IMG/VR virus record: IMGVR_UViG_3300006033_000017
Origin: a virus
Taxonomy: Duplodnaviria; Heunggongvirae; Uroviricota; Caudoviricetes
Length of the DNA stretch: 64,000 nucleotides
Direction: 5' to 3' (one strand)
Part shown: piece by piece, positions 7,275 to 57,698 of the stretch
Position numbering within the stretch: position 1 is the first letter of the stretch
Layout: each line of letters starts with the position of its first letter
Made by a program: the position numbers and the translations under genes
The notes under the pieces: model-generated
What the model saw: only the letters and a program-made list of their open reading frames with translations
The model's database searches: none
Told to the model about the DNA's origin: nothing

Positions 7275-7592
7275 TTATCCTGGGAGTATTGAGGTAGGAC
7301 GTACAGACATGATCCCTATCTCACGCTTCGTAAGCCATTTCTCAACGTATAGAAGGGTCCATAGTTCACTACGCTCATAATTGGGAACCTCCCATGGACC
7401 ATTAGAAAGCATCGGAACCATCTCTTCGATTAGCTCCTCAGGGGTTGCACAAATCACTTTGCTTTCTGTAATAATGCTAACGTCATCATCAGACATTAAT
7501 CCAATGCGCTCAGAGATTTGCTTGAAAACATCGTTATCATGGCAATCAGCATGAATAACGAAGAGATAGAGTCTCACACGGATATTGTTCAT
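7275..7592 (-). CDS. hypothetical protein (105 aa)
   Basis: ORF. Confidence 0.4.
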   Translation of the reverse strand: MNNIRVRLYLFVIHADCHDNDVFKQISERIGLMSDDDVSIITESKVICATPEELIEEMVPMLSNGPWEVPNYERSELWTLLYVEKWLTKREIGIMSVRPTSILPG

Positions 7593-8398
7593 TAGTCTTT
7601 TCTCCCCACCAATAGCTTAATTGTGGGCCAATGGAACTTCTTAGACTTCTTGTGTTTTTCTTGATCCTTTGTAATCGCATCAGTAAAACGATGATACCCG
7701 TCAATCAGCCAGTACTGTCCACGGCGCGTCAAAGCCACGCCAACGACATCAGGAGCATAAGGATATTTGCCTTGAATCTTCTTCTGATACCCGTCATTAA
7801 AGGTCACTTGATTAACGGGGATATCCTGTATCTCCCATTGACGATCCCTTATGTCATCAAGAAGATAACCATACTCAAGACAAAGGATATGTTCTACCTG
7901 AGCAGCGGGATAGGGAAGACTGAGGAGTTTATCAATTTGCTCAATTGGCTTCTCAGCATCAACTAGGTAAATGCCCTCTAGCTCTTCACCATAATAGCCA
8001 CCCCTAATATGATGGCACCAATACTGGGGATCAAATAGATTATTGATAGTTAGGATGCGATTAATGCAATATCGTTCCAATGGGGTTACCCATGTCCAAA
8101 GATTCGCAATATCATTAAGGTTAATTGACTTTATATCCACATCCTCGATTCGACGACAGCGACAAATGTAGTCGAATCTGTCCTCACATTCACAGGGTGA
8201 ATATTCGTAATCATAATTCATGTAATGAGAAAGATTCTGACCAAGAAAGCTCCTGGCGTTCTTGTATTTCAACGGAGCTATGCCTTGGGGATAATGTAGA
8301 AGGCAATAAGCATCACCCGAAAGATCAGTATAACGCCCCTTATTTCTACAGGGCTTGCCTTGTTTAGTATGAGCTTGGCAATTAGGGATTTGTTTCAT
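7592..8398 (-). CDS. ParB-like nuclease-domain protein
   Basis: C-terminal WLIDGYHRF matches the ParB N-terminal/sulfiredoxin DGxHR motif; Cys/His-rich N-terminus. Confidence 0.45.
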   Translation of the reverse strand: MKQIPNCQAHTKQGKPCRNKGRYTDLSGDAYCLLHYPQGIAPLKYKNARSFLGQNLSHYMNYDYEYSPCECEDRFDYICRCRRIEDVDIKSINLNDIANLWTWVTPLERYCINRILTINNLFDPQYWCHHIRGGYYGEELEGIYLVDAEKPIEQIDKLLSLPYPAAQVEHILCLEYGYLLDDIRDRQWEIQDIPVNQVTFNDGYQKKIQGKYPYAPDVVGVALTRRGQYWLIDGYHRFTDAITKDQEKHKKSKKFHWPTIKLLVGRKD

Positions 8399-21182: not shown

Positions 21183-22022
21183 TTAGCGGCGCGAGCTACT
21201 AGACGAACTAGAACTGGATCGACTACTAGAGCTACTAAAGCTACTAGAGCTACCGAAACTTCCTGAAGAAGATCGCCCACTAGAGCTAAAGCCACTCGAT
21301 CCACCGAAACTACCACTACTGCGGCTAGGACTTGAGCCGCCAAAGCTACCACTACTCCGACTAGAGCTTGAGCCACTCCAACTACTACTTGGACGACTAG
21401 AGCTTGAGCCAAAAGACCCCTTGGAACTCGCTGCCGAACTTCCGCTATTGAAAGAGCCTCTCGACTTACTAAAAGATCCACCTGAAGTGGGCCTTGAGCC
21501 TGAGAAGCTACTACCAGTTCGTGCCTCGGGTACAGAAGGAACAGTCGTACTCTTTGATCCAAAAGAACCACTAGATGTACTAGGCGTACCGAAACTGCCC
21601 TTTGCCGGTGGGCGAGTGGTCCTTACTTCAGCAGCAGTAGCAGTACGAACAGCAGGCCGACTAGTTACCGCAACATATGGCTTACTATATCCCGGTGGGT
21701 TAGCATGATAGTAATACGAGTAATGCGACGTAGTATAGTAACGACCACGATAAGCACCACCGTAAGGATTAGCCATCCACCAAGAATAGGTCGGGAAGTA
21801 ATCATCATCGATAATCACAACCGGGGCCGGAGCAGCCGCCATGTATTCAGGTCCGACAGGTTGAACCGCCATTCCATTATGGCGACTGTGGATATCCCCC
21901 GCCACACCAACAACAATCGTACCAACAATTGCCAGCATCGCAATGACAACCAGCATCTCAATCAGGGTAAAGCCCTTCTTACGCATCTTCTGTTTCCTTT
22001 TCTTTGATTTCACCAAGTACAT
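21183..22022 (-). CDS. type IV prepilin-like protein with a Tyr-rich region and a long Ser/Gly/Arg-rich repetitive tail
   Basis: KKGFTLIEMLVVIAMLAIVGTIVVG matches the class III prepilin cleavage/methylation signal (G|FTLIE); then (SGSFGSSS)n low-complexity repeats. Confidence 0.6.
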   Translation of the reverse strand: MYLVKSKKRKQKMRKKGFTLIEMLVVIAMLAIVGTIVVGVAGDIHSRHNGMAVQPVGPEYMAAAPAPVVIIDDDYFPTYSWWMANPYGGAYRGRYYTTSHYSYYYHANPPGYSKPYVAVTSRPAVRTATAAEVRTTRPPAKGSFGTPSTSSGSFGSKSTTVPSVPEARTGSSFSGSRPTSGGSFSKSRGSFNSGSSAASSKGSFGSSSSRPSSSWSGSSSSRSSGSFGGSSPSRSSGSFGGSSGFSSSGRSSSGSFGSSSSFSSSSSRSSSSSSSSSRR

Positions 22023-27488: not shown

Positions 27489-27707
27489 TTACCACTCATC
27501 ACGGTGCTCCTGTAATACCTTGATTGCTAACTTGCATCTCTGAATTGCTTCGGTAATAACCTCATCGGTCGCTTCTTCACGATACTTGTGTAGGACTGAG
27601 GCAACACAACCCTTTAACTCGGCTTCACCTATCTTGTAGAGGGAACGAGTTCCCATCGGTGCTAATTCTTGCATCATATAATACGCAAGCTTCATTGATG
27701 TCATCAT
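27489..27707 (-). CDS. hypothetical protein (72 aa)
   Basis: ORF overlapping the Thg1-like gene stop. Confidence 0.35.
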   Translation of the reverse strand: MMTSMKLAYYMMQELAPMGTRSLYKIGEAELKGCVASVLHKYREEATDEVITEAIQRCKLAIKVLQEHRDEW

Positions 27708-28471
27708 ACTTCTGCCTTCAGAATTGGCTCCGCGCCACGGAATACAACATCTTCCCTATTCGCGATGCGAGTCATAATAGGAATTGATAGTTGATGATAT
27801 TCTGAGCGTTGATATGTTTCACCAGTATCAGCTTTAGTGTGAAAAACTGGTACCTTCCTGAAATACGCACCACGCTTCAAGTGATCCGCATAATCATTCC
27901 AGTTAATGCCCTTCTGAAAGATCATCTCCTGAAGAGCATCGCATTTCTTGCCCTGCAACGCAGAGTGACTATAGAGACTCTGCGCAACCATCAAGATACT
28001 GTTGCGAACCGCATCGACTTCACGCCAGATCAAGGCGTTAGTGGCTTCATATTCAGTTGGGACGCTCCATACACGGCAATCAAACAAAGGGTTCAAATGC
28101 GCTTTCTTGGGAAGATAGGTCGGCAGTTGCTTGTTAAAGAAAACCGACGCCATACTTGCTAACAAAGAAGTCATCTTGGCAACACGACCATCAAAGAAGA
28201 TCTTGCGCTCAAAATCATCCTGTTGCCAAATTAGCGTAATTTCATCAGATTGTGTGTAAGAAATAACAGCATGAGTTTCTTTCACAAGATACTTAGCCGT
28301 TTCATGCATCAATTGCCGCAAATCATCATCAAATGGGCGCGCAAGGCCGCGACAAAATGAGTGAAATGCCTTACCATCTAGACGTGCCATGGCGGGCGCG
28401 AGCGGCATGAGTCGCGCTTGCGGGCCACAGTACAGGTTCTCATAGTATTTCATTCTATCCGACAGATCCAT
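27704..28471 (-). CDS. Thg1-like protein (tRNA-His guanylyltransferase family; 3'-5' nucleotidyltransferase)
   Basis: MARLDGKAFHSF ... ISYTQSDEITLIW aligns to the Thg1 catalytic core RLDGRNFHRF / AYGQSDEYSF; colinear similarity over the whole length. Confidence 0.8.
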   Translation of the reverse strand: MDLSDRMKYYENLYCGPQARLMPLAPAMARLDGKAFHSFCRGLARPFDDDLRQLMHETAKYLVKETHAVISYTQSDEITLIWQQDDFERKIFFDGRVAKMTSLLASMASVFFNKQLPTYLPKKAHLNPLFDCRVWSVPTEYEATNALIWREVDAVRNSILMVAQSLYSHSALQGKKCDALQEMIFQKGINWNDYADHLKRGAYFRKVPVFHTKADTGETYQRSEYHQLSIPIMTRIANREDVVFRGAEPILKAEV

Positions 28472-28491
28472 GACAATTCCTCACTATTATC

Positions 28492-28521
28492 ATCATAGCA
28501 TACTGAAGCTGCTGGCGTCAA
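28492..28521 (-). promoter_or_regulatory. sigma70-like promoter TTGACG-N18-TgcTATGAT for the Thg1-like gene
   Basis: minus-strand read of the region. Confidence 0.5.
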
Positions 28522-34645: not shown

Positions 34646-35845
34646 CTAAGCATTTTGCAATGTCTCGAATATCCGCGAATCTATAGGTTTGAAACCGGCA
34701 CCGTAAGGTCCGGTAAGGAATCGATTCAAAATATTCTTACTCGCGTTTGTATCCGCATTGTCTCCATGACCACAACTGAGACACAAGAACACCTCTCCGT
34801 TTCGATTCCTCTTATCGACATGACCACATAGCGGACAGGTGATACTGGTATTATAACACGAAACGGTTCTGAAGGAAACACGGTTTTCTTCACACCCCAT
34901 TTGTACCCGGTCTAACCAATATCGCCATACCCAACTGCCGATAACTCGACGCATACTTTTAGAGAGGCGTCGTCTCTCCTTTGCCTTATGGTTCAGATTA
35001 GATAACTTCTCCACAACCACAAGATCAATACTTTTATTAGTTACGATCTGCCTCGTAACTTCGTCTATTCGTTGTTTCAAGGCCCTACGAGCTTTCTTTT
35101 GGCCTTTCGATCCCTGATTACAACGATTGACTCTGTTCACACAATCTTTAATATCTCTACCTAATTGCTCTCCAGTAGAGAATGAAGCCAAAGCATTAAT
35201 CCCAGAGTCTATACCGATAGCATTGAGCCCCGTTTTCTTTGGACCAGTTTCAATCTCGAAACAGAACTGAACACTATCTCTGGTGATAATGTAGCTATTC
35301 AGTCTTGTTCCCAATTGATTCCATTTGTTGAAATGCTTGTGTTTTTTAATCGGAAGATCCATCACAATCTTATTGCCAATTGAAGCTAGATGCAACCAAG
35401 AATCAAATTCTGATGCTGCCTTTGAAGCCACTAACTTAGCAATGTTACAATTGGCGCAAATTCTATCTCCTTTGTGTGTCGGCTTAACGGGCTTGATTGT
35501 TTCTGCTTTTTGTCTTAATTGATTGGCCTTAACTTCGTATTTAGCTCTTTCTGCTTTGGCTAATAATCGTTTTTTCTCATTTTTGGCTTTCTCTTGAGAA
35601 GAATTAATCAGATCAATAGCTTCTCTTGCACAGACCTTTCTCATTCTATGAGAAAACCAAGAATCAGGGAGGTTGATTATATCTTTGAGCAAGTCTGCTT
35701 TTGTCGGGCATTTATCTAGTGCCCAGAAAGAATCAATGAAGATATTGCAGAGTCTTCCGTATTCGATCAACACAATGCTAAGCTCCTCTCTCTTTTTTAA
35801 GGTCGAGAATTTAAGGGTACATTGTGTTGACCGAATGATTTTCAC
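34646..35845 (-). CDS. tnpB: TnpB (IS605 OrfB-family RuvC-like, putative RNA-guided nuclease)
   Basis: RuvC-I GIDSGINALA, RuvC-II VVVEKLSN, zinc finger CPLCGH...CLSCGH, RuvC-III DNADTNASKNI; N-terminus MKIIRSTQCTLKF is typical. Confidence 0.8.
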   Translation of the reverse strand: MKIIRSTQCTLKFSTLKKREELSIVLIEYGRLCNIFIDSFWALDKCPTKADLLKDIINLPDSWFSHRMRKVCAREAIDLINSSQEKAKNEKKRLLAKAERAKYEVKANQLRQKAETIKPVKPTHKGDRICANCNIAKLVASKAASEFDSWLHLASIGNKIVMDLPIKKHKHFNKWNQLGTRLNSYIITRDSVQFCFEIETGPKKTGLNAIGIDSGINALASFSTGEQLGRDIKDCVNRVNRCNQGSKGQKKARRALKQRIDEVTRQIVTNKSIDLVVVEKLSNLNHKAKERRRLSKSMRRVIGSWVWRYWLDRVQMGCEENRVSFRTVSCYNTSITCPLCGHVDKRNRNGEVFLCLSCGHGDNADTNASKNILNRFLTGPYGAGFKPIDSRIFETLQNA

Positions 35846-38238: not shown

Positions 38239-38742
38239 CTACCTGAAGAGTTTCTTAATCTTTCGAAGAAACTTCTTGGCCTCTTTTTGTACATTTGGTT
38301 CTGCCAAAGACAATAGAATTGACGAATTTGGGTCTCGTGTATATGTCTTATTTAATCTATTGTCTACAACATAACTCAAACAAATGTGATCCAATTTATT
38401 CAACGCAAAAATAGAATTAAGAACAGATATAGCAAAAGCATCAGCTTCATATTCATTTTGATAAAAAACTTCATCTCGATCAACATAACTGTGTCGAAAT
38501 AGAACATGCGCTATTTCATGAAGCAGAACATAGTAGTAGAGTAATGAGAATTTTGGCTTAACATAAATAGCAATATTCATGCCAAGACATGATCCCCAAT
38601 GTGCTGGCGAATCACCCTCATTGTGCTTAACGAGACGAATGTATCTCGCGGCACGAAGAAAAATACTATAGTAACGCGGCAATAGGATTCTTAAACTTAG
38701 ATACATCTTTGCTAGTTTGAATTTGTGTTTCAGAGACATCAA
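38239..38742 (-). CDS. ImmA/IrrE-family zinc metallopeptidase (M78)
   Basis: LHEIAHVLFRH (HExxH) plus downstream EYEADAFAISVL matches the M78 E-x-EA-x-FA-x-LL signature. Confidence 0.6.
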   Translation of the reverse strand: MMSLKHKFKLAKMYLSLRILLPRYYSIFLRAARYIRLVKHNEGDSPAHWGSCLGMNIAIYVKPKFSLLYYYVLLHEIAHVLFRHSYVDRDEVFYQNEYEADAFAISVLNSIFALNKLDHICLSYVVDNRLNKTYTRDPNSSILLSLAEPNVQKEAKKFLRKIKKLFR

Positions 38743-38753
38743 TTTGACCTTTA

Positions 38754-39350
38754 TTGAGAGTAATGATTGACCTCGCTGCCCTTACAACGATAAACCATCA
38801 GACTAACCCCATTATAGCACGACCGCAGCCGTTTGTTAAATCGCTTGACAACCCAATCACCCCATGGTATAATGATGATATGAAACCCATAAATCCAGTA
38901 TATGCGGCTCGTTTCGATGAAGCCAAATACTTACTAGAAAAACATCACGACCTATTTAGCGCTATTGTCTCTATTTCTGATAGAGAAGATGAGTTAATGC
39001 CACAAGCATTAACCCAAGACACCTATTGTCTGCGTCTAATCTTCACTGATACTGATGGTCGTCAACCTGACATAGCTATGTCTCTAGAACAAGCACAAGC
39101 TCTATATGATGCACTACCGACTATCACACAAGGAACAGGCACAATCCTGGTTCATTGCTCCGCAGGCTTGTGTCGCTCACCTGCGATTGCATATGTGATT
39201 ATGGCGTACCAATTCGGCCCCGGCAATGAAGCTCAAGCATACGCAGAGCTTTCTAAATTGAATCCTGTGATGCTACCTAACCAATGGGTGCTTAGTCAGT
39301 GCGAGAAGGTGATGCCGGGTTTTAAGTTACTACCAATTCTTAACAAATAA
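38754..39350 (+). CDS. Cys-based protein phosphatase (tyrosine/dual-specificity type)
   Basis: HCSAGLCRS = CX5R(S/T) P-loop. Confidence 0.6.
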   Translation: MRVMIDLAALTTINHQTNPIIARPQPFVKSLDNPITPWYNDDMKPINPVYAARFDEAKYLLEKHHDLFSAIVSISDREDELMPQALTQDTYCLRLIFTDTDGRQPDIAMSLEQAQALYDALPTITQGTGTILVHCSAGLCRSPAIAYVIMAYQFGPGNEAQAYAELSKLNPVMLPNQWVLSQCEKVMPGFKLLPILNK

Positions 39351-52310: not shown

Positions 52311-53213
52311 CTACTGCGTAGGTGCCGGCATCTGAATCATAGGTGTTGCACCACCTACGACCATTGGTTGCTTGCCGTCCCACTTCTCAATAGCAGCCTT
52401 CTGATTCTGAATGCGCTGCCAGTCCACCATGATAGAAGTCAGGCTATTAGTCAACAGAGCGTTAGCCTTCGCCTGACCCTCAGCTTTAACGCGCGCAGAT
52501 TCCGCCTCACCGCGAGCCGACTCAATTTGCTGAGTTGCTACAGCCTTAGTCTCACGGATCTTATTCTCTGCGGCAACAGCCTTGTTGGTCGCGGTAATTG
52601 CGGCAACAATTGACTCCGAAACCTGAGAATCTAGGCGCAGGTCAGAAACAAAACTCACCATGTTAACCTGGAAGCCATCCGCACCTAGACGAGTACTTAG
52701 ATCGTCAGTTACCTGCTTCAGTAGCTCGGCTTTACCTTCACCATAGATCTTTACAATCGGCATCTTCGATGCATGACGACTCAGAGAATCGCGAACCTGA
52801 GAACGCAGATAAACATTCGAGATACCAGTGATATCCTGACGGAACTTCTTGAGGATCGACGGCACCTTGGCTGAATCCAAAGTAAAGGCCAGGGAAACAT
52901 CAACACGGACCAATGCACCCTCAACAGAGTTGAAAGCCATACTCTCATCAACGGGCGCACCTTCATGGGCACTTGCGGTCCAGTTGATCGTCTTCATAAA
53001 GGTCGGGTAACGATAAAGAATGGTAGTCAAAGGATTGTAGAATACGCGACCAGTAACAACTGGCATGTTATTCACACCCTTATTCCCGCCATACATATTG
53101 ACCTTAACGCCAACCCACCCCGGCTCAATCACCGAGGAGCAGAAAAGCAACACACCCAGAGGCATCAACAGAATCACCACTAGTGCGGCGATGATACCAA
53201 TTCGCTTTGTCAT
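52311..53213 (-). CDS. SPFH/band-7 (stomatin/prohibitin/HflKC-like) membrane protein
   Basis: N-terminal TM helix; SPFH-like core; Ala/Glu/Gln-rich coiled coil (AESARVKAEGQAKA). Confidence 0.65.
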   Translation of the reverse strand: MTKRIGIIAALVVILLMPLGVLLFCSSVIEPGWVGVKVNMYGGNKGVNNMPVVTGRVFYNPLTTILYRYPTFMKTINWTASAHEGAPVDESMAFNSVEGALVRVDVSLAFTLDSAKVPSILKKFRQDITGISNVYLRSQVRDSLSRHASKMPIVKIYGEGKAELLKQVTDDLSTRLGADGFQVNMVSFVSDLRLDSQVSESIVAAITATNKAVAAENKIRETKAVATQQIESARGEAESARVKAEGQAKANALLTNSLTSIMVDWQRIQNQKAAIEKWDGKQPMVVGGATPMIQMPAPTQ

Positions 53214-53952: not shown

Positions 53953-54231
53953 CTAATTCATTTCATCTCGCAAGGTAGAAGCACCAAATTCCCGCAACGC
54001 GGCTTCGAATTCTTCTGCATCTTCTTGCGTAATCGCACCAAACTTTACACGGTCCTTAACCGACGCTGCCATATCAAGGATTTCATCAGGATCACTATAG
54101 ACCTTTGGTACCGGCAAATTGCACTTGGGGCACACAAAGATGATAGCAATATCGGGACCATCATTCTGAACAACTTGCGAAGCGTGTTCAGCATACAATG
54201 GCTCACCACAGGAACAATTGATTTCAGACAT
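53953..54231 (-). CDS. zinc-ribbon protein (92 aa)
   Basis: CSCGE...CPKCN; start overlaps the ATPase stop (TGATG). Confidence 0.45.
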   Translation of the reverse strand: MSEINCSCGEPLYAEHASQVVQNDGPDIAIIFVCPKCNLPVPKVYSDPDEILDMAASVKDRVKFGAITQEDAEEFEAALREFGASTLRDEMN

Positions 54232-55103
54232 TATCTCGTACCTCTAAGTTGATCGATCTTATCCCGCGCGGCATCGACGGTTTTCTTGGCTTCTTCCATT
54301 AGACTAATAGCATCTGCCATGTAATTATAGAAAGCACAGCGTGCCTCTTTAGCATATCCTGCATGGATGTCAATGATGTTAAAAGCCAGATTGCCAGCCA
54401 ACAAAGGCAGAACTGAGTGCGTAGATACAATCACTTGACATTGTTCTGCCAATGTCGGAATGAAGTTCTGCCAGAACTTCGTTTGTAGCGGCACCTCAAA
54501 CCAATTATCAGGCTCATCCAATAGTACCGTAACTTTACCAGTAGAGTTGAGACTCTTGATGTAGTCAACCTGATCTTGAATTTTGTGTTGACCAACAGGC
54601 TCTTTATACTTGGCTAGCATATCTTCCCAAACGATGGGTTTCTCAATAGCAGCATTCAACCTCGCGAGTCGATATAGGTTGATTTGACCCTCACTCATTT
54701 GATTGGCGTTAACCTGATCCACCATACCGGAAACGCCATCAAGAGAGCCATTGTCGCTATCCATGAAGTAGCCAACATGCTTGATGTTGATTGTTCCATC
54801 ATAGAAGAAGGTAGGCGTACCGTCCCAATCAATTTCAGCAATACAACCATGAGATGCCTTTCGCTCAAGCATTTCGGCGACTGTATTACCACGATGAGGA
54901 GTCAAAGAGCCCCAGCCTGCCTCATTCACAGAAACATCAATGAAGCATCGAGCAGCCATCATCTTTAGGAGGGTCGTTTTACCACAACCATTAGGTCCCC
55001 ATAGGATATTAGGCATTGAAGTAGAGAACTCAATCACCCGACCATCTTTCAGATCAGGTAGCTCGGCGGCGTATCCAGAAATTGTCTTAACAGATCGAAT
55101 CAT
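54231..55103 (-). CDS. compact ABC-type ATPase (AAA_21/RecF-like)
   Basis: Walker A GPNGCGKTTLL, signature-like MSEGQ, Walker B VLLDEPD, H-loop STHS. Confidence 0.7.
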   Translation of the reverse strand: MIRSVKTISGYAAELPDLKDGRVIEFSTSMPNILWGPNGCGKTTLLKMMAARCFIDVSVNEAGWGSLTPHRGNTVAEMLERKASHGCIAEIDWDGTPTFFYDGTINIKHVGYFMDSDNGSLDGVSGMVDQVNANQMSEGQINLYRLARLNAAIEKPIVWEDMLAKYKEPVGQHKIQDQVDYIKSLNSTGKVTVLLDEPDNWFEVPLQTKFWQNFIPTLAEQCQVIVSTHSVLPLLAGNLAFNIIDIHAGYAKEARCAFYNYMADAISLMEEAKKTVDAARDKIDQLRGTR

Positions 55104-55555
55104 TAGTCAATTCCTAGCGCATCAACAGCATGAAACATGGAAGCAATAGAGTCGTGTTCTATACCAGCTATCTGTAAGGCTCGGCTAACACCTAATCGGT
55201 AGCTTGCCATTAAGCTCCCGACGACAGGAGCCCCGGCACCATTAACCGCTCGCAAGAACTTGTAATGCTCTAGATGTGCATTTGCTAAGTCGGCAATCAA
55301 ATCTTCGGACAACTCTTTTGATGCTCCGTTCTCAGCAATGCTTAATGCCTCTTTGAGTGAACAATCATCTTTATGCCCCGTATGATGTCGCCAGCAGTCC
55401 CAGCCCTTTGATGCAAGCAACTTGTATTGCTCAGGCATAGCGCCCTGGCAAACGGGGCAGCAAGGAATGTTCGTGCCAAAATCTTCTTCGGGCGACCAAA
55501 CGTCGCCACTACCAGACCATTCTAGTTCATGTAGAATAGCAGCTAAAGGTGTCAT
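55103..55555 (-). CDS. hypothetical Cys/His-rich protein (150 aa) translationally coupled to the ATPase (possible degenerate HNH/zinc-finger)
   Basis: CCPVCQG ... WDCWRHHTGHKDDC; ATGA overlap. Confidence 0.4.
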   Translation of the reverse strand: MTPLAAILHELEWSGSGDVWSPEEDFGTNIPCCPVCQGAMPEQYKLLASKGWDCWRHHTGHKDDCSLKEALSIAENGASKELSEDLIADLANAHLEHYKFLRAVNGAGAPVVGSLMASYRLGVSRALQIAGIEHDSIASMFHAVDALGID

Positions 55556-57154: not shown

Positions 57155-57185
57155 TCCAATTGTCCTTCCTGGTTTTTCTCAACTA

Positions 57186-57341
57186 AACGAGAGGGGAGAT
57201 TCGAACTCCCACCGGCGAATGGGCATTCGCCTTTTGCTGTTAATTACGTAGGGGCTTAGCTCAGCATTAGCCCTTCACAGCATTATTCTTCCTTGTATTT
57301 GCAACTACTCGGAAGAAGCTCTATCCAATAAGCTACTCTCG
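57186..57341 (-). tRNA. atypical tRNA-like gene, 156 nt between perfectly complementary acceptor strands (type II-like arm; discriminator U)
   Basis: 5' ACGAGAG-UA-GCUU-AUUGGAUA-GAGC (acceptor, U8, D-arm) and 3' GGGAG-UUCGAAU-CUCCC-CUCUCGU (T-arm, acceptor); GGCGAAUgcccAUUCGCC hairpin in the variable position; no canonical anticodon arm found. Confidence 0.45.
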
Positions 57342-57399
57342 TCCTTTTGAAAGAGCGGGCTCCAATAGTGAGCCTTCTATCTTTCAAACTTGCTCTAGA

Positions 57400-57698
57400 T
57401 GCCCCTGTCTGGAGTTGAACCAGCGTCACCCGGTTATGCTTACCACTATAGTTTTCACTACCAAACAAGTTGTTTGTGGTCTGGACTCTCTCTTCACCAT
57501 AGATTATTATCTTTAGGTGTTCCGTGTTGAGTCTCTACACCTTGCAACTTTCGTTGCCTTGGCTCGGGATTGCCATTTCACAGGGTTCCCCGAATTTACG
57601 GAATAATCACAGCAATAGTTTCCTATTGCCGCGCCCTCTTTTGTGCTTCTAAAGCACGTTAGCGAAGCCGGACGCTCTAACCATTGAGCTACAGGGGC
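57400..57698 (-). tRNA. tRNA with anticodon CAU (Met or Ile-lysidine type) interrupted by a 227-nt group I intron in the anticodon loop
   Basis: 5' exon GCCCCUG-UA-GCUC-AAUGGUUA-GAGC-G-UCCGG-CU (57666..57698) and 3' exon CAUAA-CCGGG-UGAC-GCUGG-UUCAACU-CCAGA-CAGGGGC-A (57400..57438); all stems pair; intron ends in G. Confidence 0.7.
57439..57665 (-). ncRNA. group I self-splicing intron (IC3-like, Azoarcus / cyanobacterial tRNA-intron type)
   Basis: AAAUUCGGGGAACCCUG ... GGCAAUCCCGAGCCAAGG ... GGUGUAGAGACUCAACACGGAACACCUAAAG ... CUAUGG ... GAGAGUCC closely match the conserved P3-P8 core of the Azoarcus tRNA-Ile and Anabaena tRNA-Leu introns. Confidence 0.65.

Follow-up and report, generated by a model that had tools for sequence, protein, structure and literature searches.

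A phage-encoded Thg1-like protein of the predicted bacterial type and its proposed role in tRNA 5'-end repair

Eukaryotic Thg1, known from structures of the human (PDB 3OTB), Candida albicans (3WBZ) and yeast (5XOX) enzymes, reads the His anticodon and then places a single non-templated G-1 opposite A73; Thg1-like proteins (TLPs), in contrast, act on many tRNAs and copy a template when they add nucleotides. Solved TLP structures include BtTLP of Bacillus thuringiensis (PDB 4KGK/4KGM) and MaTLP of Methanosarcina acetivorans (PDB 5AXK-5AXN), whose hairpin binds the tRNA elbow and measures the length of the acceptor stem. TLPs can also add G-1 opposite C73 to tRNA-His that is without G-1, in a second, anticodon-dependent binding mode (PMC4820378). 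Thg1/TLP genes have been noted in phages since 2010 and were read as tRNA-repair genes in 2013 and 2021 (PMC2904730, PMC3601020, PMC7824862); annotated examples, also in large or jumbo tailed phages and proposed in the literature to act in tRNA modification or repair, are, among others, those of Pseudomonas phage 201phi2-1, Bacillus phage Bc431v3 (gp143), Caulobacter phage CcrColossus (gp300) and Vibrio phage D69. A functional analogy is offered by Pnkp and Rnl1 of phage T4, a phage enzyme set that heals tRNA so that translation continues. The analogy ends there, as the T4 proteins and their chemistry are unrelated to TLPs: they heal and seal breaks in the anticodon loop, whereas TLPs rebuild lost 5' nucleotides of the acceptor stem. 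We found no report in the literature of an assay of any phage TLP, and to our knowledge the natural substrates have not been established even for bacterial TLPs.

Here we compare with these systems a TLP gene in a viral contig, working on a 64-kb stretch of DNA that we refer to as the window. The gene and its immediate elements are the following:

28492..28521, minus strand: candidate sigma-70-like promoter, TTGACG-18-TATGAT with an extended -10 TG (10 of 12 in a consensus scan)
28478..28482, minus strand: Shine-Dalgarno-like GAGGA, read from the sequence, 6 nt upstream of the TLP start codon
27704..28471, minus strand: TLP gene, an ATG-to-TGA open reading frame (ORF) of 255 aa, with a palm/catalytic domain at residues ~5-138 and a C-terminal domain containing a predicted beta-hairpin at 202-228
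27489..27707, minus strand: ORF of 72 aa with its start codon overlapping the stop codon of the TLP gene in ATGA; it is also among the genes called on the source contig

A sequence-only reading of this DNA had claimed Thg1 similarity over the full length of the protein, and profile searches confirm the family assignment. The 255-aa ORF holds both strings on which that reading drew (ARLDGKAFHSF and YTQSDEITLIW). Pfam PF04446 matches it at 102.6 bits, far above the cut-off of 29.2 (E 1.9e-29), in an alignment that spans profile positions 2-130 of 130, and PHROG 4717 matches residues 2-243 with an E-value of 3e-76. A sequence search of solved structures gave BtTLP (4kgk, E 9e-36) as the best match, at ~32% identity. 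PF04446 was the only family returned by a Pfam scan at E <= 0.01; PF14413, the Thg1 C-terminal domain, was not matched, and roughly one-third of the close homologues listed carry that label. The closest relatives have a C-terminal region ~15 residues longer, and the last 50 residues of the phage protein show no sequence alignment to BtTLP; even so, the region shows conservation in the family alignment and lies within full-length structural alignments to BtTLP. The ORF at 27704-28471 is an intact, genuine Thg1-family gene.

The catalytic Asp and Glu residues are all kept in alignment: D32, D76 and E77, the metal-binding carboxylates, correspond to D29, D76 and E77 of human Thg1 and to D30, D75 and E76 of BtTLP, and are invariant among 20 homologues. 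Invariant positions in the family alignment also include S75, R133, N157, S158, M161 and R222, and D153, A154, N157, S158 and M161 are invariant within the motif D153-A-V-R-N157-S158-I-L-M161. With BtTLP the phage protein further shares the His in contact with the 3'-OH of the nucleotide (H37, aligned with BtTLP H35) and the TLP-specific Met (M161, at the position of BtTLP M158), a position held by Asn in the eukaryotic HINNLYN motif (PMC3701042); a difference is seen before the conserved Pro, where the phage protein has R45 and BtTLP K43. The HINNLYN motif is absent from the phage protein, which reads AVRNSILM instead, with a Met at the Asn position critical for adenylylation. Similarity scores follow the same division (phmmer): 126.5 bits against BtTLP 4kgk, 40-47 against eukaryotic Thg1 (Candida, yeast and human) and 38 against the archaeal TLP 5axk. 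Eukaryotic Thg1 shares the palm fold, the catalytic triad and, by homology, the two-step chemistry. Because the TLP-type motif replaces HINNLYN while the catalytic residues are present, the phage protein is, as judged from sequence and model, a bacterial-type, template-dependent TLP and not a G-1-adding Thg1. Sequence, motifs and predicted fold thus agree with the bacterial-type TLP and templated 3'-5' repair that had been proposed, the activity being assigned by homology.

An AlphaFold (AF2) model of the protein reached a pLDDT of 90.7 and a pTM of 0.87. BtTLP is also its best structural match in Foldseek (4kgm, E 1.4e-20, and 4kgk; TM ~0.84), and the top 32 PDB matches, with E-values from 1e-20 to 1e-12, are all Thg1 or TLP structures. 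MaTLP shares the fold (E 5e-15), with an identity of only ~23%. R133 of the phage protein corresponds to the Arg by which MaTLP contacts the 5' end of the tRNA, and the model contains a beta-hairpin (strands 202-212 and 219-228) that carries the invariant R222. This predicted hairpin and its Arg resemble the elbow-binding hairpin and conserved Arg (R215) of MaTLP (PMC4820378), an equivalence that rests on the model.

The gene had also been credited with a promoter of its own, and a candidate was indeed found upstream of it. This site belongs to a window-wide family of the form GCTTGACA-N14-TGCTATAAT; the window has at least 14 TG-bearing, near-consensus extended -10 sites of this design, and an ATG follows each of them at 20-35 nt. 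A phage extended -10 promoter, read by the host sigma-70 RNA polymerase, probably drives the TLP gene. The 72-aa ORF is probably co-transcribed and translationally coupled with the TLP gene, and it had no match in Pfam, PHROG or PADLOC. Neither this ORF nor any other immediate neighbour could be retained as a conserved operon partner, since none had a homologue in 80 related viral loci.

TLP relatives are widespread, occurring in 163 GenBank phage records and at least 585 IMG/VR contigs. No GenBank phage copy exceeds 46% identity to the protein studied here, and the named phage TLPs cited above, all members of PHROG 4717, are 36-46% identical to it. Many cellular genomes also carry relatives, concentrated in Myxococcota and Planctomycetota. 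Of the 74 viral loci left after dereplication, 19 carry tRNA genes at a distance of up to 10 kb from the TLP gene and 10 at up to 2 kb, and several TLP genes are sandwiched between two tRNA arrays; the 0-1 kb interval is not where tRNA density peaks, and these proximity counts carry no genome-wide baseline. RNA-related enzymes are found nearby as well. Vibrio phage D69 has a CCA-adding enzyme, an RNA ligase and a polynucleotide kinase all within 6 kb of its TLP gene, among them homologues of T4 Pnkp and Rnl1. The TLP neighbourhood holds a CCA-adding enzyme in CcrColossus, a polynucleotide kinase in mycobacteriophage Yeet, tRNA-Met and a 2'-5' RNA ligase in Rhodococcus phage Weasels2, and a PF10127 nucleotidyltransferase in GAP32; no RNA-related neighbour was present in 3 of the 8 isolate phages inspected. 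Elsewhere among the relatives, RtcB lies two genes downstream of TLP at one locus (L083), and one other contig has an RNA ligase 3 kb upstream.

That tRNA arrays, CCA-adding enzymes, RNA ligases and polynucleotide kinases often stand beside phage TLPs supports a role in tRNA or RNA end repair. On balance we favour the reading that the TLP mends 5'-truncated tRNAs, of the host or of the phage, within the RNA end-healing kits of large phages; its enzymatic activity, tRNA substrate and biological role are what we infer here. By homology, the enzyme would act on an RNA 5' end, where a 5'-monophosphate would be activated with ATP or GTP, or a 5'-triphosphate used directly. Nucleotides would be added in the 3'-to-5' direction opposite the 3' strand of the tRNA acceptor stem, serving as Watson-Crick template, and addition would stop once the stem is full-length because the C-terminal beta-hairpin would gauge the distance to the tRNA elbow. 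During infection, the most likely job of the enzyme would be to restore 5'-truncated host or phage tRNAs. A related activity, the correction of mismatched 5' acceptor stems (5'-editing, as in amoebozoan mitochondria), was rejected: acceptor stems are perfectly paired in 149 of the 167 tRNAs that lie beside related TLP genes, and many of the remaining ones have a CAU anticodon and C or U as first base and are probably initiators parsed one position off.

The neighbourhoods of other phages back the tRNA-repair role suggested by the sequence-only reading, but its proposed link to this phage's own tRNAs is not supported. With default settings, ARAGORN found no tRNA in the 64-kb window, and with introns allowed it found two tRNA-like genes, at 57185-57698:

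57400..57698, minus strand: tRNA(CAU), interrupted at the 33/34 junction by a group I intron of 227 nt
57185..57343, minus strand: aberrant tRNA-like RNA of ~160 nt, called by ARAGORN as tRNA-Leu(UAA) with a 67-nt intron

The TLP gene had been placed next to intron-bearing tRNAs. These two genes, the nearest found, lie 29 kb away, no canonical tRNA was found near the TLP gene, and a perfect consensus promoter at 57806-57778 heads their transcription unit, which is separate from that of the TLP gene with its own candidate promoter. The acceptor stems of this phage's own tRNAs are, moreover, fully paired. As to the introns, that of tRNA(CAU) is confirmed by a match to the group I intron family (Rfam RF00028, 60.2 bits, full model covered), whereas that of the second RNA is not. 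The anticodon stem of this ~160-nt RNA forms only 3 of 5 pairs, no Rfam family matches it, and a 19-mer scan of IMG/VR for homologues gave unrelated coding sequences only; it folds with -59 kcal/mol (z -4.3). It is not a validated intron-bearing tRNA.

It has also been suggested that the enzyme could add G-1 to a phage tRNA, and more broadly it could add or maintain G-1 on phage or host tRNA-His, as histidyl-tRNA synthetase needs. The Thg1 family is named for this reaction, most databases label the phage copies accordingly, and the second binding mode of TLPs described above would allow it. Two related viral loci (L004 and L017) do have a tRNA-His gene within 5 kb of the TLP gene. However, both of these genes, the only two cases examined, already encode G-1 opposite C73, as in bacteria, so that no addition step would be required. 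The protein is moreover of the TLP type, without the eukaryotic motif, and no tRNA-His was found in the 73 kb of the contig examined (the window and 9 kb beyond it). We therefore regard G-1 addition as unlikely.

About equally unlikely, in our estimate, is that the TLP acts beyond tRNA, on other phage or host RNA 5' ends or by nucleotide transfer in phage-host conflict. The window itself would fit such a function, and counts against the favoured reading, in that the gene has no tRNA or RNA-repair neighbour there. Neither RNA ligase, polynucleotide kinase, CCA-adding enzyme nor RtcB was found in a scan of window ORFs of at least 244 aa and selected smaller ones, nor did the window yield a Pnkp or Rnl homologue of the T4 type; in the part of the genome seen, this TLP gene differs in this respect from several other phage TLP genes. 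The 9 kb beyond the window held no tRNA, and no RNA-repair gene by the precomputed Pfam labels of its called genes. The RtcB of a relative's locus, used as a tblastn query, had no hit in the window or at any of the other loci. A metallophos ORF and a small P-loop ORF were considered as RNA-healing candidates and set aside, neither having a relative among solved structures. The genes that directly flank the TLP gene (a dCMP deaminase, an endolysin and ORFans) do not recur beside its relatives in the 80 related viral loci, and in 55 of the 74 loci the nearest tRNA, if any, is more than 10 kb from the TLP gene. The palm fold is, in addition, common to Thg1, GGDEF proteins, Cas10 and nucleotide cyclases (PMC2904730). 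Against this, the characterised members in the literature that we consulted act on tRNA acceptor ends, and tRNA-contacting features (R133 and the beta-hairpin with R222) are conserved. Cyclase structures match the AF2 model only marginally (TM ~0.2-0.3), and neither the TLP nor its neighbours matched a defence system in PADLOC.

Less likely still, and to us a long shot, is that the TLP is a dedicated counter-defence factor, rebuilding 5' acceptor ends of tRNAs where an undescribed host nuclease removes them, or a maturation factor that completes the 5' ends of unusual RNAs of the phage itself. Such RNAs could be the ~160-nt tRNA-like RNA or tRNAs of closely packed arrays (spacers of 4-6 nt), and in either role reverse polymerisation would be a required step of infection; support for this idea extends as far as the neighbourhood statistics given above.

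The repair of truncated tRNAs, which we continue to favour, is here assigned to a phage, and the phage origin of the gene is plausible. Its source contig is 157 kb long and packed with short ORFan genes, and several window proteins match PHROG families, among them an amidase endolysin and a head protein (phrog_240, E 9e-24). The best match among public phage records is to an uncultured 635-kb phage; at the nucleotide level, 5 kb searched against GenBank phages by megablast gave no match. The carrier is plausibly a large uncultured tailed phage with a contig of at least 157 kb. That the gene is instead a chromosomal TLP of Candidatus Omnitrophota or another bacterium is very improbable in view of these features and of the repeated phage-style promoter family, although a 99%-identical protein, already annotated at NCBI, was deposited in a Candidatus Omnitrophota MAG (likely by mis-binning, as its scaffold is only 3.75 kb) and close relatives (45-50% identity) occur in genomes of Planctomycetota, Myxococcota and other bacteria.

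This TLP gene is an ordinary example of its kind, since phage genomes with such a gene already annotated number well above a hundred, and the idea of tRNA repair is already published. Standard pipelines already annotate it, so that its value is that of one more data point, and it adds no new feature to the question of what TLPs do. Reverse (3'-5') RNA polymerisation is a rare chemistry. As phage TLPs sit by tRNA arrays and RNA-healing enzymes, they are a reasonable place to seek the natural role of bacterial and viral TLPs, for example in the contest between host defences that cut tRNA and the phage enzymes that may repair it.

Judged from its sequence, the ORF at 27704-28471 is a real gene, and its assignment to the Thg1 family goes beyond chance resemblance. 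The features around which the analysis turns are the following:

27704-28471, minus strand: gene of the Thg1-like protein (TLP), an ATG-to-TGA ORF of 255 aa
6 nt before the TLP ATG, minus strand: GAGGA, read from the sequence
28521-28492, minus strand (that of the TLP gene): sigma-70-like site TTGACG-18-TATGAT with TG before the -10, from a consensus scan
27489-27707: 72-aa ORF overlapping the TLP stop codon (ATGA)
57400-57698, minus strand: tRNA(CAU) with a group I intron, from ARAGORN with introns allowed and Rfam
57185-57343, minus strand: aberrant tRNA-like RNA of ~160 nt, from ARAGORN with introns allowed

The Thg1 similarity claimed in the sequence-only reading was borne out: both quoted peptides (ARLDGKAFHSF and YTQSDEITLIW) are present in the 255-aa ORF, Pfam PF04446 (Thg1) matched at E 1.9e-29 (102.6 bits, where the curated cut-off is 29.2, with the whole 130-position profile covered), and PHROG 4717, 'tRNA-His guanylyltransferase', matched residues 2-243 at E 3e-76. 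No NCBIfam model matched the protein. Among solved structures the Bacillus thuringiensis TLP (BtTLP, 4kgk) scored 126 bits (E 9e-36), followed by Candida, yeast and human Thg1 at 40-47 bits and the archaeal TLP 5axk at 38 bits.

The catalytic Asp and Glu residues are kept. Counted along the printed alignments, human D29, S75, D76 and E77 correspond to D32, S75, D76 and E77 of the phage protein, and BtTLP D30, D75 and E76 to D32, D76 and E77; BtTLP H35 corresponds to H37. In BtTLP, D30 and D75 are strictly conserved metal ligands and H35 contacts the nucleotide 3'-OH (PMC3701042). AVRNSILM stands in place of the eukaryotic HINNLYN, with M161 corresponding to BtTLP M158, a residue that has been set against the eukaryotic Asn at the same position (PMC3701042). 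Across an alignment of the protein with 19 homologues (49-62% identity), the invariant columns are R30, D32, G33, Q74, S75, D76, E77, K99, R133, N157, S158, M161, R200, G201 and R222.

An AlphaFold2 model built from this alignment (mean pLDDT 90.7, pTM 0.87) returned BtTLP chains as the top eight Foldseek matches in the PDB (E 1e-20 to 1e-17, target TM 0.81-0.85), with human Thg1, Candida Thg1 and archaeal TLP next. The model predicts a C-terminal beta-hairpin at residues 202-212 and 219-228. In its complex with tRNA, the Methanosarcina TLP binds the elbow through a flexible beta-hairpin carrying a conserved Arg and leaves the anticodon unread (PMC4820378); the predicted hairpin and the invariant R222 would be in keeping with this. 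Sequence and predicted fold thus describe the phage protein as an intact, bacterial-type TLP with two small departures, namely that the Pfam C-terminal model PF14413 was unmatched in the profile search and that, in the family alignment, the closest relatives have ~15 residues more in the hairpin region.

An identical protein is encoded by a metagenomic contig of 157,149 bp, whose first 64 kb, in reverse orientation, are the window. The window is crowded with short genes without family matches, and among its products are an amidase endolysin, a head protein (phrog_240, E 9e-24), members of several further PHROG families and a TnpB-like transposase; no terminase or tail genes were seen in the part of the contig examined. 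NCBI holds a 99%-identical 'tRNA(His) guanylyltransferase Thg1 family protein' from a Candidatus Omnitrophota MAG (JBAYMG010000074.1, our locus L085). Mis-binning is likely because this scaffold is just 3754 bp, and it is probably a piece of the genome of this phage or of a close relative; it could instead hint at the host. A bacterial origin of the TLP gene is unlikely, and a viral one is the better reading.

The window carries further cargo. The TnpB-like protein (34646-35845, minus), with a Cas12f1-like TNB domain and a PHROG transposase match, adjoins a 58-aa MerR/HTH_17 protein, and the two genes form a mobile element within the genome of the phage. In two relatives (locus L083 and the P0004 contig), TnpB genes of this kind flank the TLP locus. 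A 290-aa ABC-type ATPase (54231-55103, minus), ~2 kb from the tRNA genes, weakly matches the defence ATPases AriA (PARIS) and PtuA (Septu) in its C-terminal part only (best E 1.5e-10); its start codon is abutted by an upstream 150-aa ORF without family match (55103-55555, minus). A 167-aa protein (38239-38742, minus) weakly resembles Lit / peptidase U49 in the metalloprotease motif region: PADLOC Lit gave E 5e-5, and Pfam PF10463 is marked as a weak hit on the source contig. A 279-aa protein (21183-22022, minus) carries a prokaryotic N-terminal methylation motif (type IV pilin-like, PF07963), unusual as phage cargo. The region 52311-53213 (minus) codes for an SPFH/Band 7 (prohibitin-like) protein, and Fusobacterium phage FNU3 (locus L173) has a 'putative prohibitin' (7395-8204) at a distance of 0.7 kb from its TLP gene, which may be coincidence.

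The TLP gene had been placed next to intron-bearing tRNAs. Default ARAGORN found no tRNA in the 64-kb window; with introns allowed it placed a pair of minus-strand genes at 57185-57698. Since 29 kb separates them from the TLP gene, 'next to' is incorrect: the identification of the protein is right, and its adjacency to tRNAs was overstated. Only one of the two has a validated intron. The tRNA(CAU) is convincing: the 227-nt insert between its halves aligns with the full-length Rfam group I intron model (60.2 bits against a gathering score of 50), contains no ORF and splits the gene between positions 33 and 34, and the spliced product is a CAU-anticodon tRNA whose acceptor stem is paired throughout. 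This intron-split gene is overlooked by standard tRNA scanning. The same insertion site is known from cyanobacterial tRNA-fMet (PMC13011429); the phage tRNA, however, has G1:C72 and is therefore not a canonical initiator, and may be an elongator Met or Ile2 tRNA.

At 57185-57343, the ARAGORN solution of an intron-bearing tRNA-Leu(UAA) was not validated, with just 3 of 5 pairs in the anticodon stem. The RNA has a stable predicted fold (-59 kcal/mol, z -4.3): the acceptor, D and T arms are normal, the variable-type arm is long, and the anticodon position is taken by a 6-bp stem with an 18-nt loop containing UUGCAAA, then an extra branched hairpin. It matched no Rfam family and no homologue was found.

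The gene had also been credited with its own strong promoter. In a local 1.6-kb scan, promoter-like sites were no more numerous than in shuffled sequence. Across the window, at least 14 near-consensus sigma-70 sites with an extended -10 share the design GCTTGACA-N14-TGCTATAAT, spanning 4689-62099, with most on the minus strand and an ATG usually 20-35 nt downstream (for example 51273-51245(-), 38845-38873(+), 46533-46505(-), 24602-24574(-) and 11818-11790(-)); the extended -10 TG occurs in 16 of the 31 sites matching at least 10 of 12 consensus positions. Both the TLP site and the perfect-consensus promoter ahead of the tRNA genes (57806-57778, minus) belong to this family. An own promoter is plausible because its site fits the window-wide design; its strength cannot be read from sequence. 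The family suggests heavy reliance on host RNA polymerase. The 72-aa ORF, which has no family match and is absent beside TLP genes elsewhere, is probably co-expressed with the TLP gene.

Relatives are widespread. They occur in 163 of 50,697 GenBank phage records by tblastn (all below 60% identity), mostly large or jumbo phages of Bacillus, Prevotella, Caulobacter, Mycobacterium, Erwinia and others, and the majority already carry the label tRNA-His guanylyltransferase. In IMG/VR, a relative is encoded on at least 585 contigs; 2252 protein clusters match at E <= 1e-10, and 302 stretches of species-representative bacterial and archaeal genomes encode one, the best 80 of which are mostly from Myxococcota and Planctomycetota.

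Among 74 dereplicated viral loci with related TLP genes, tRNA genes lie within 10 kb in 19 and within 2 kb in 10; 149 of the 157 nearby tRNA genes share the TLP strand, and in several loci the TLP gene lies between two tRNA arrays. Counted without a genome-wide baseline and with no density peak directly beside the TLP gene, this proximity is only suggestive of a tRNA role. Five IMG/VR contigs with related TLP genes (loci L003, L007, L008, L017 and L037) carry very dense arrays, with spacers mostly of 4-6 nt and one pair overlapping by 1 nt, in which several tRNAs with Val, Cys, Asn, Thr and Met anticodons, normally short (class I), reach 84-90 nt.

RtcB lies two genes downstream of the TLP gene in one relative (L083), and an RNA ligase 3 kb upstream in another. 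RNA-related neighbours lie within 6-8 kb in five of the eight isolate phages inspected and are absent in the other three; TLP neighbours include a CCA-adding enzyme, RNA ligase and polynucleotide kinase in Vibrio D69, a CCA-adding enzyme in CcrColossus, polynucleotide kinase in Mycobacteriophage Yeet, tRNA-Met and a 2'-5' RNA ligase in Rhodococcus phage Weasels2, and a PF10127 nucleotidyltransferase in GAP32. No RNA-repair partner was found among the ORFs examined in the present window.

A non-tRNA substrate is possible. G-1 addition to tRNA-His, also proposed for a phage tRNA here, is less likely, given a protein of TLP type and the two tRNA-His genes located near related TLP genes of other phages, both of which already encode G-1 opposite C73. 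5'-editing of tRNAs is unlikely, since the acceptor stems of neighbouring phage tRNAs are well paired; neither the tRNA(CAU) nor the ~160-nt RNA has a feature demanding 5'-end repair.

Thg1 was noted in phage 201phi2-1 in 2010 (PMC2904730), read as a tRNA-repair function of phages in 2013 (PMC3601020) and listed among jumbo-phage RNA-repair enzymes in a 2021 survey (PMC7824862); we found no report of an assay on a phage TLP. The suggestion of tRNA repair is thus not new, and by homology and gene context it seems reasonable. Gene neighbourhoods in other phages lend support to a role on tRNA or RNA ends, in which the TLP, by the chemistry of its homologues, would activate an RNA 5' end and then add nucleotides to the tRNA acceptor stem by templated 3'-5' addition.
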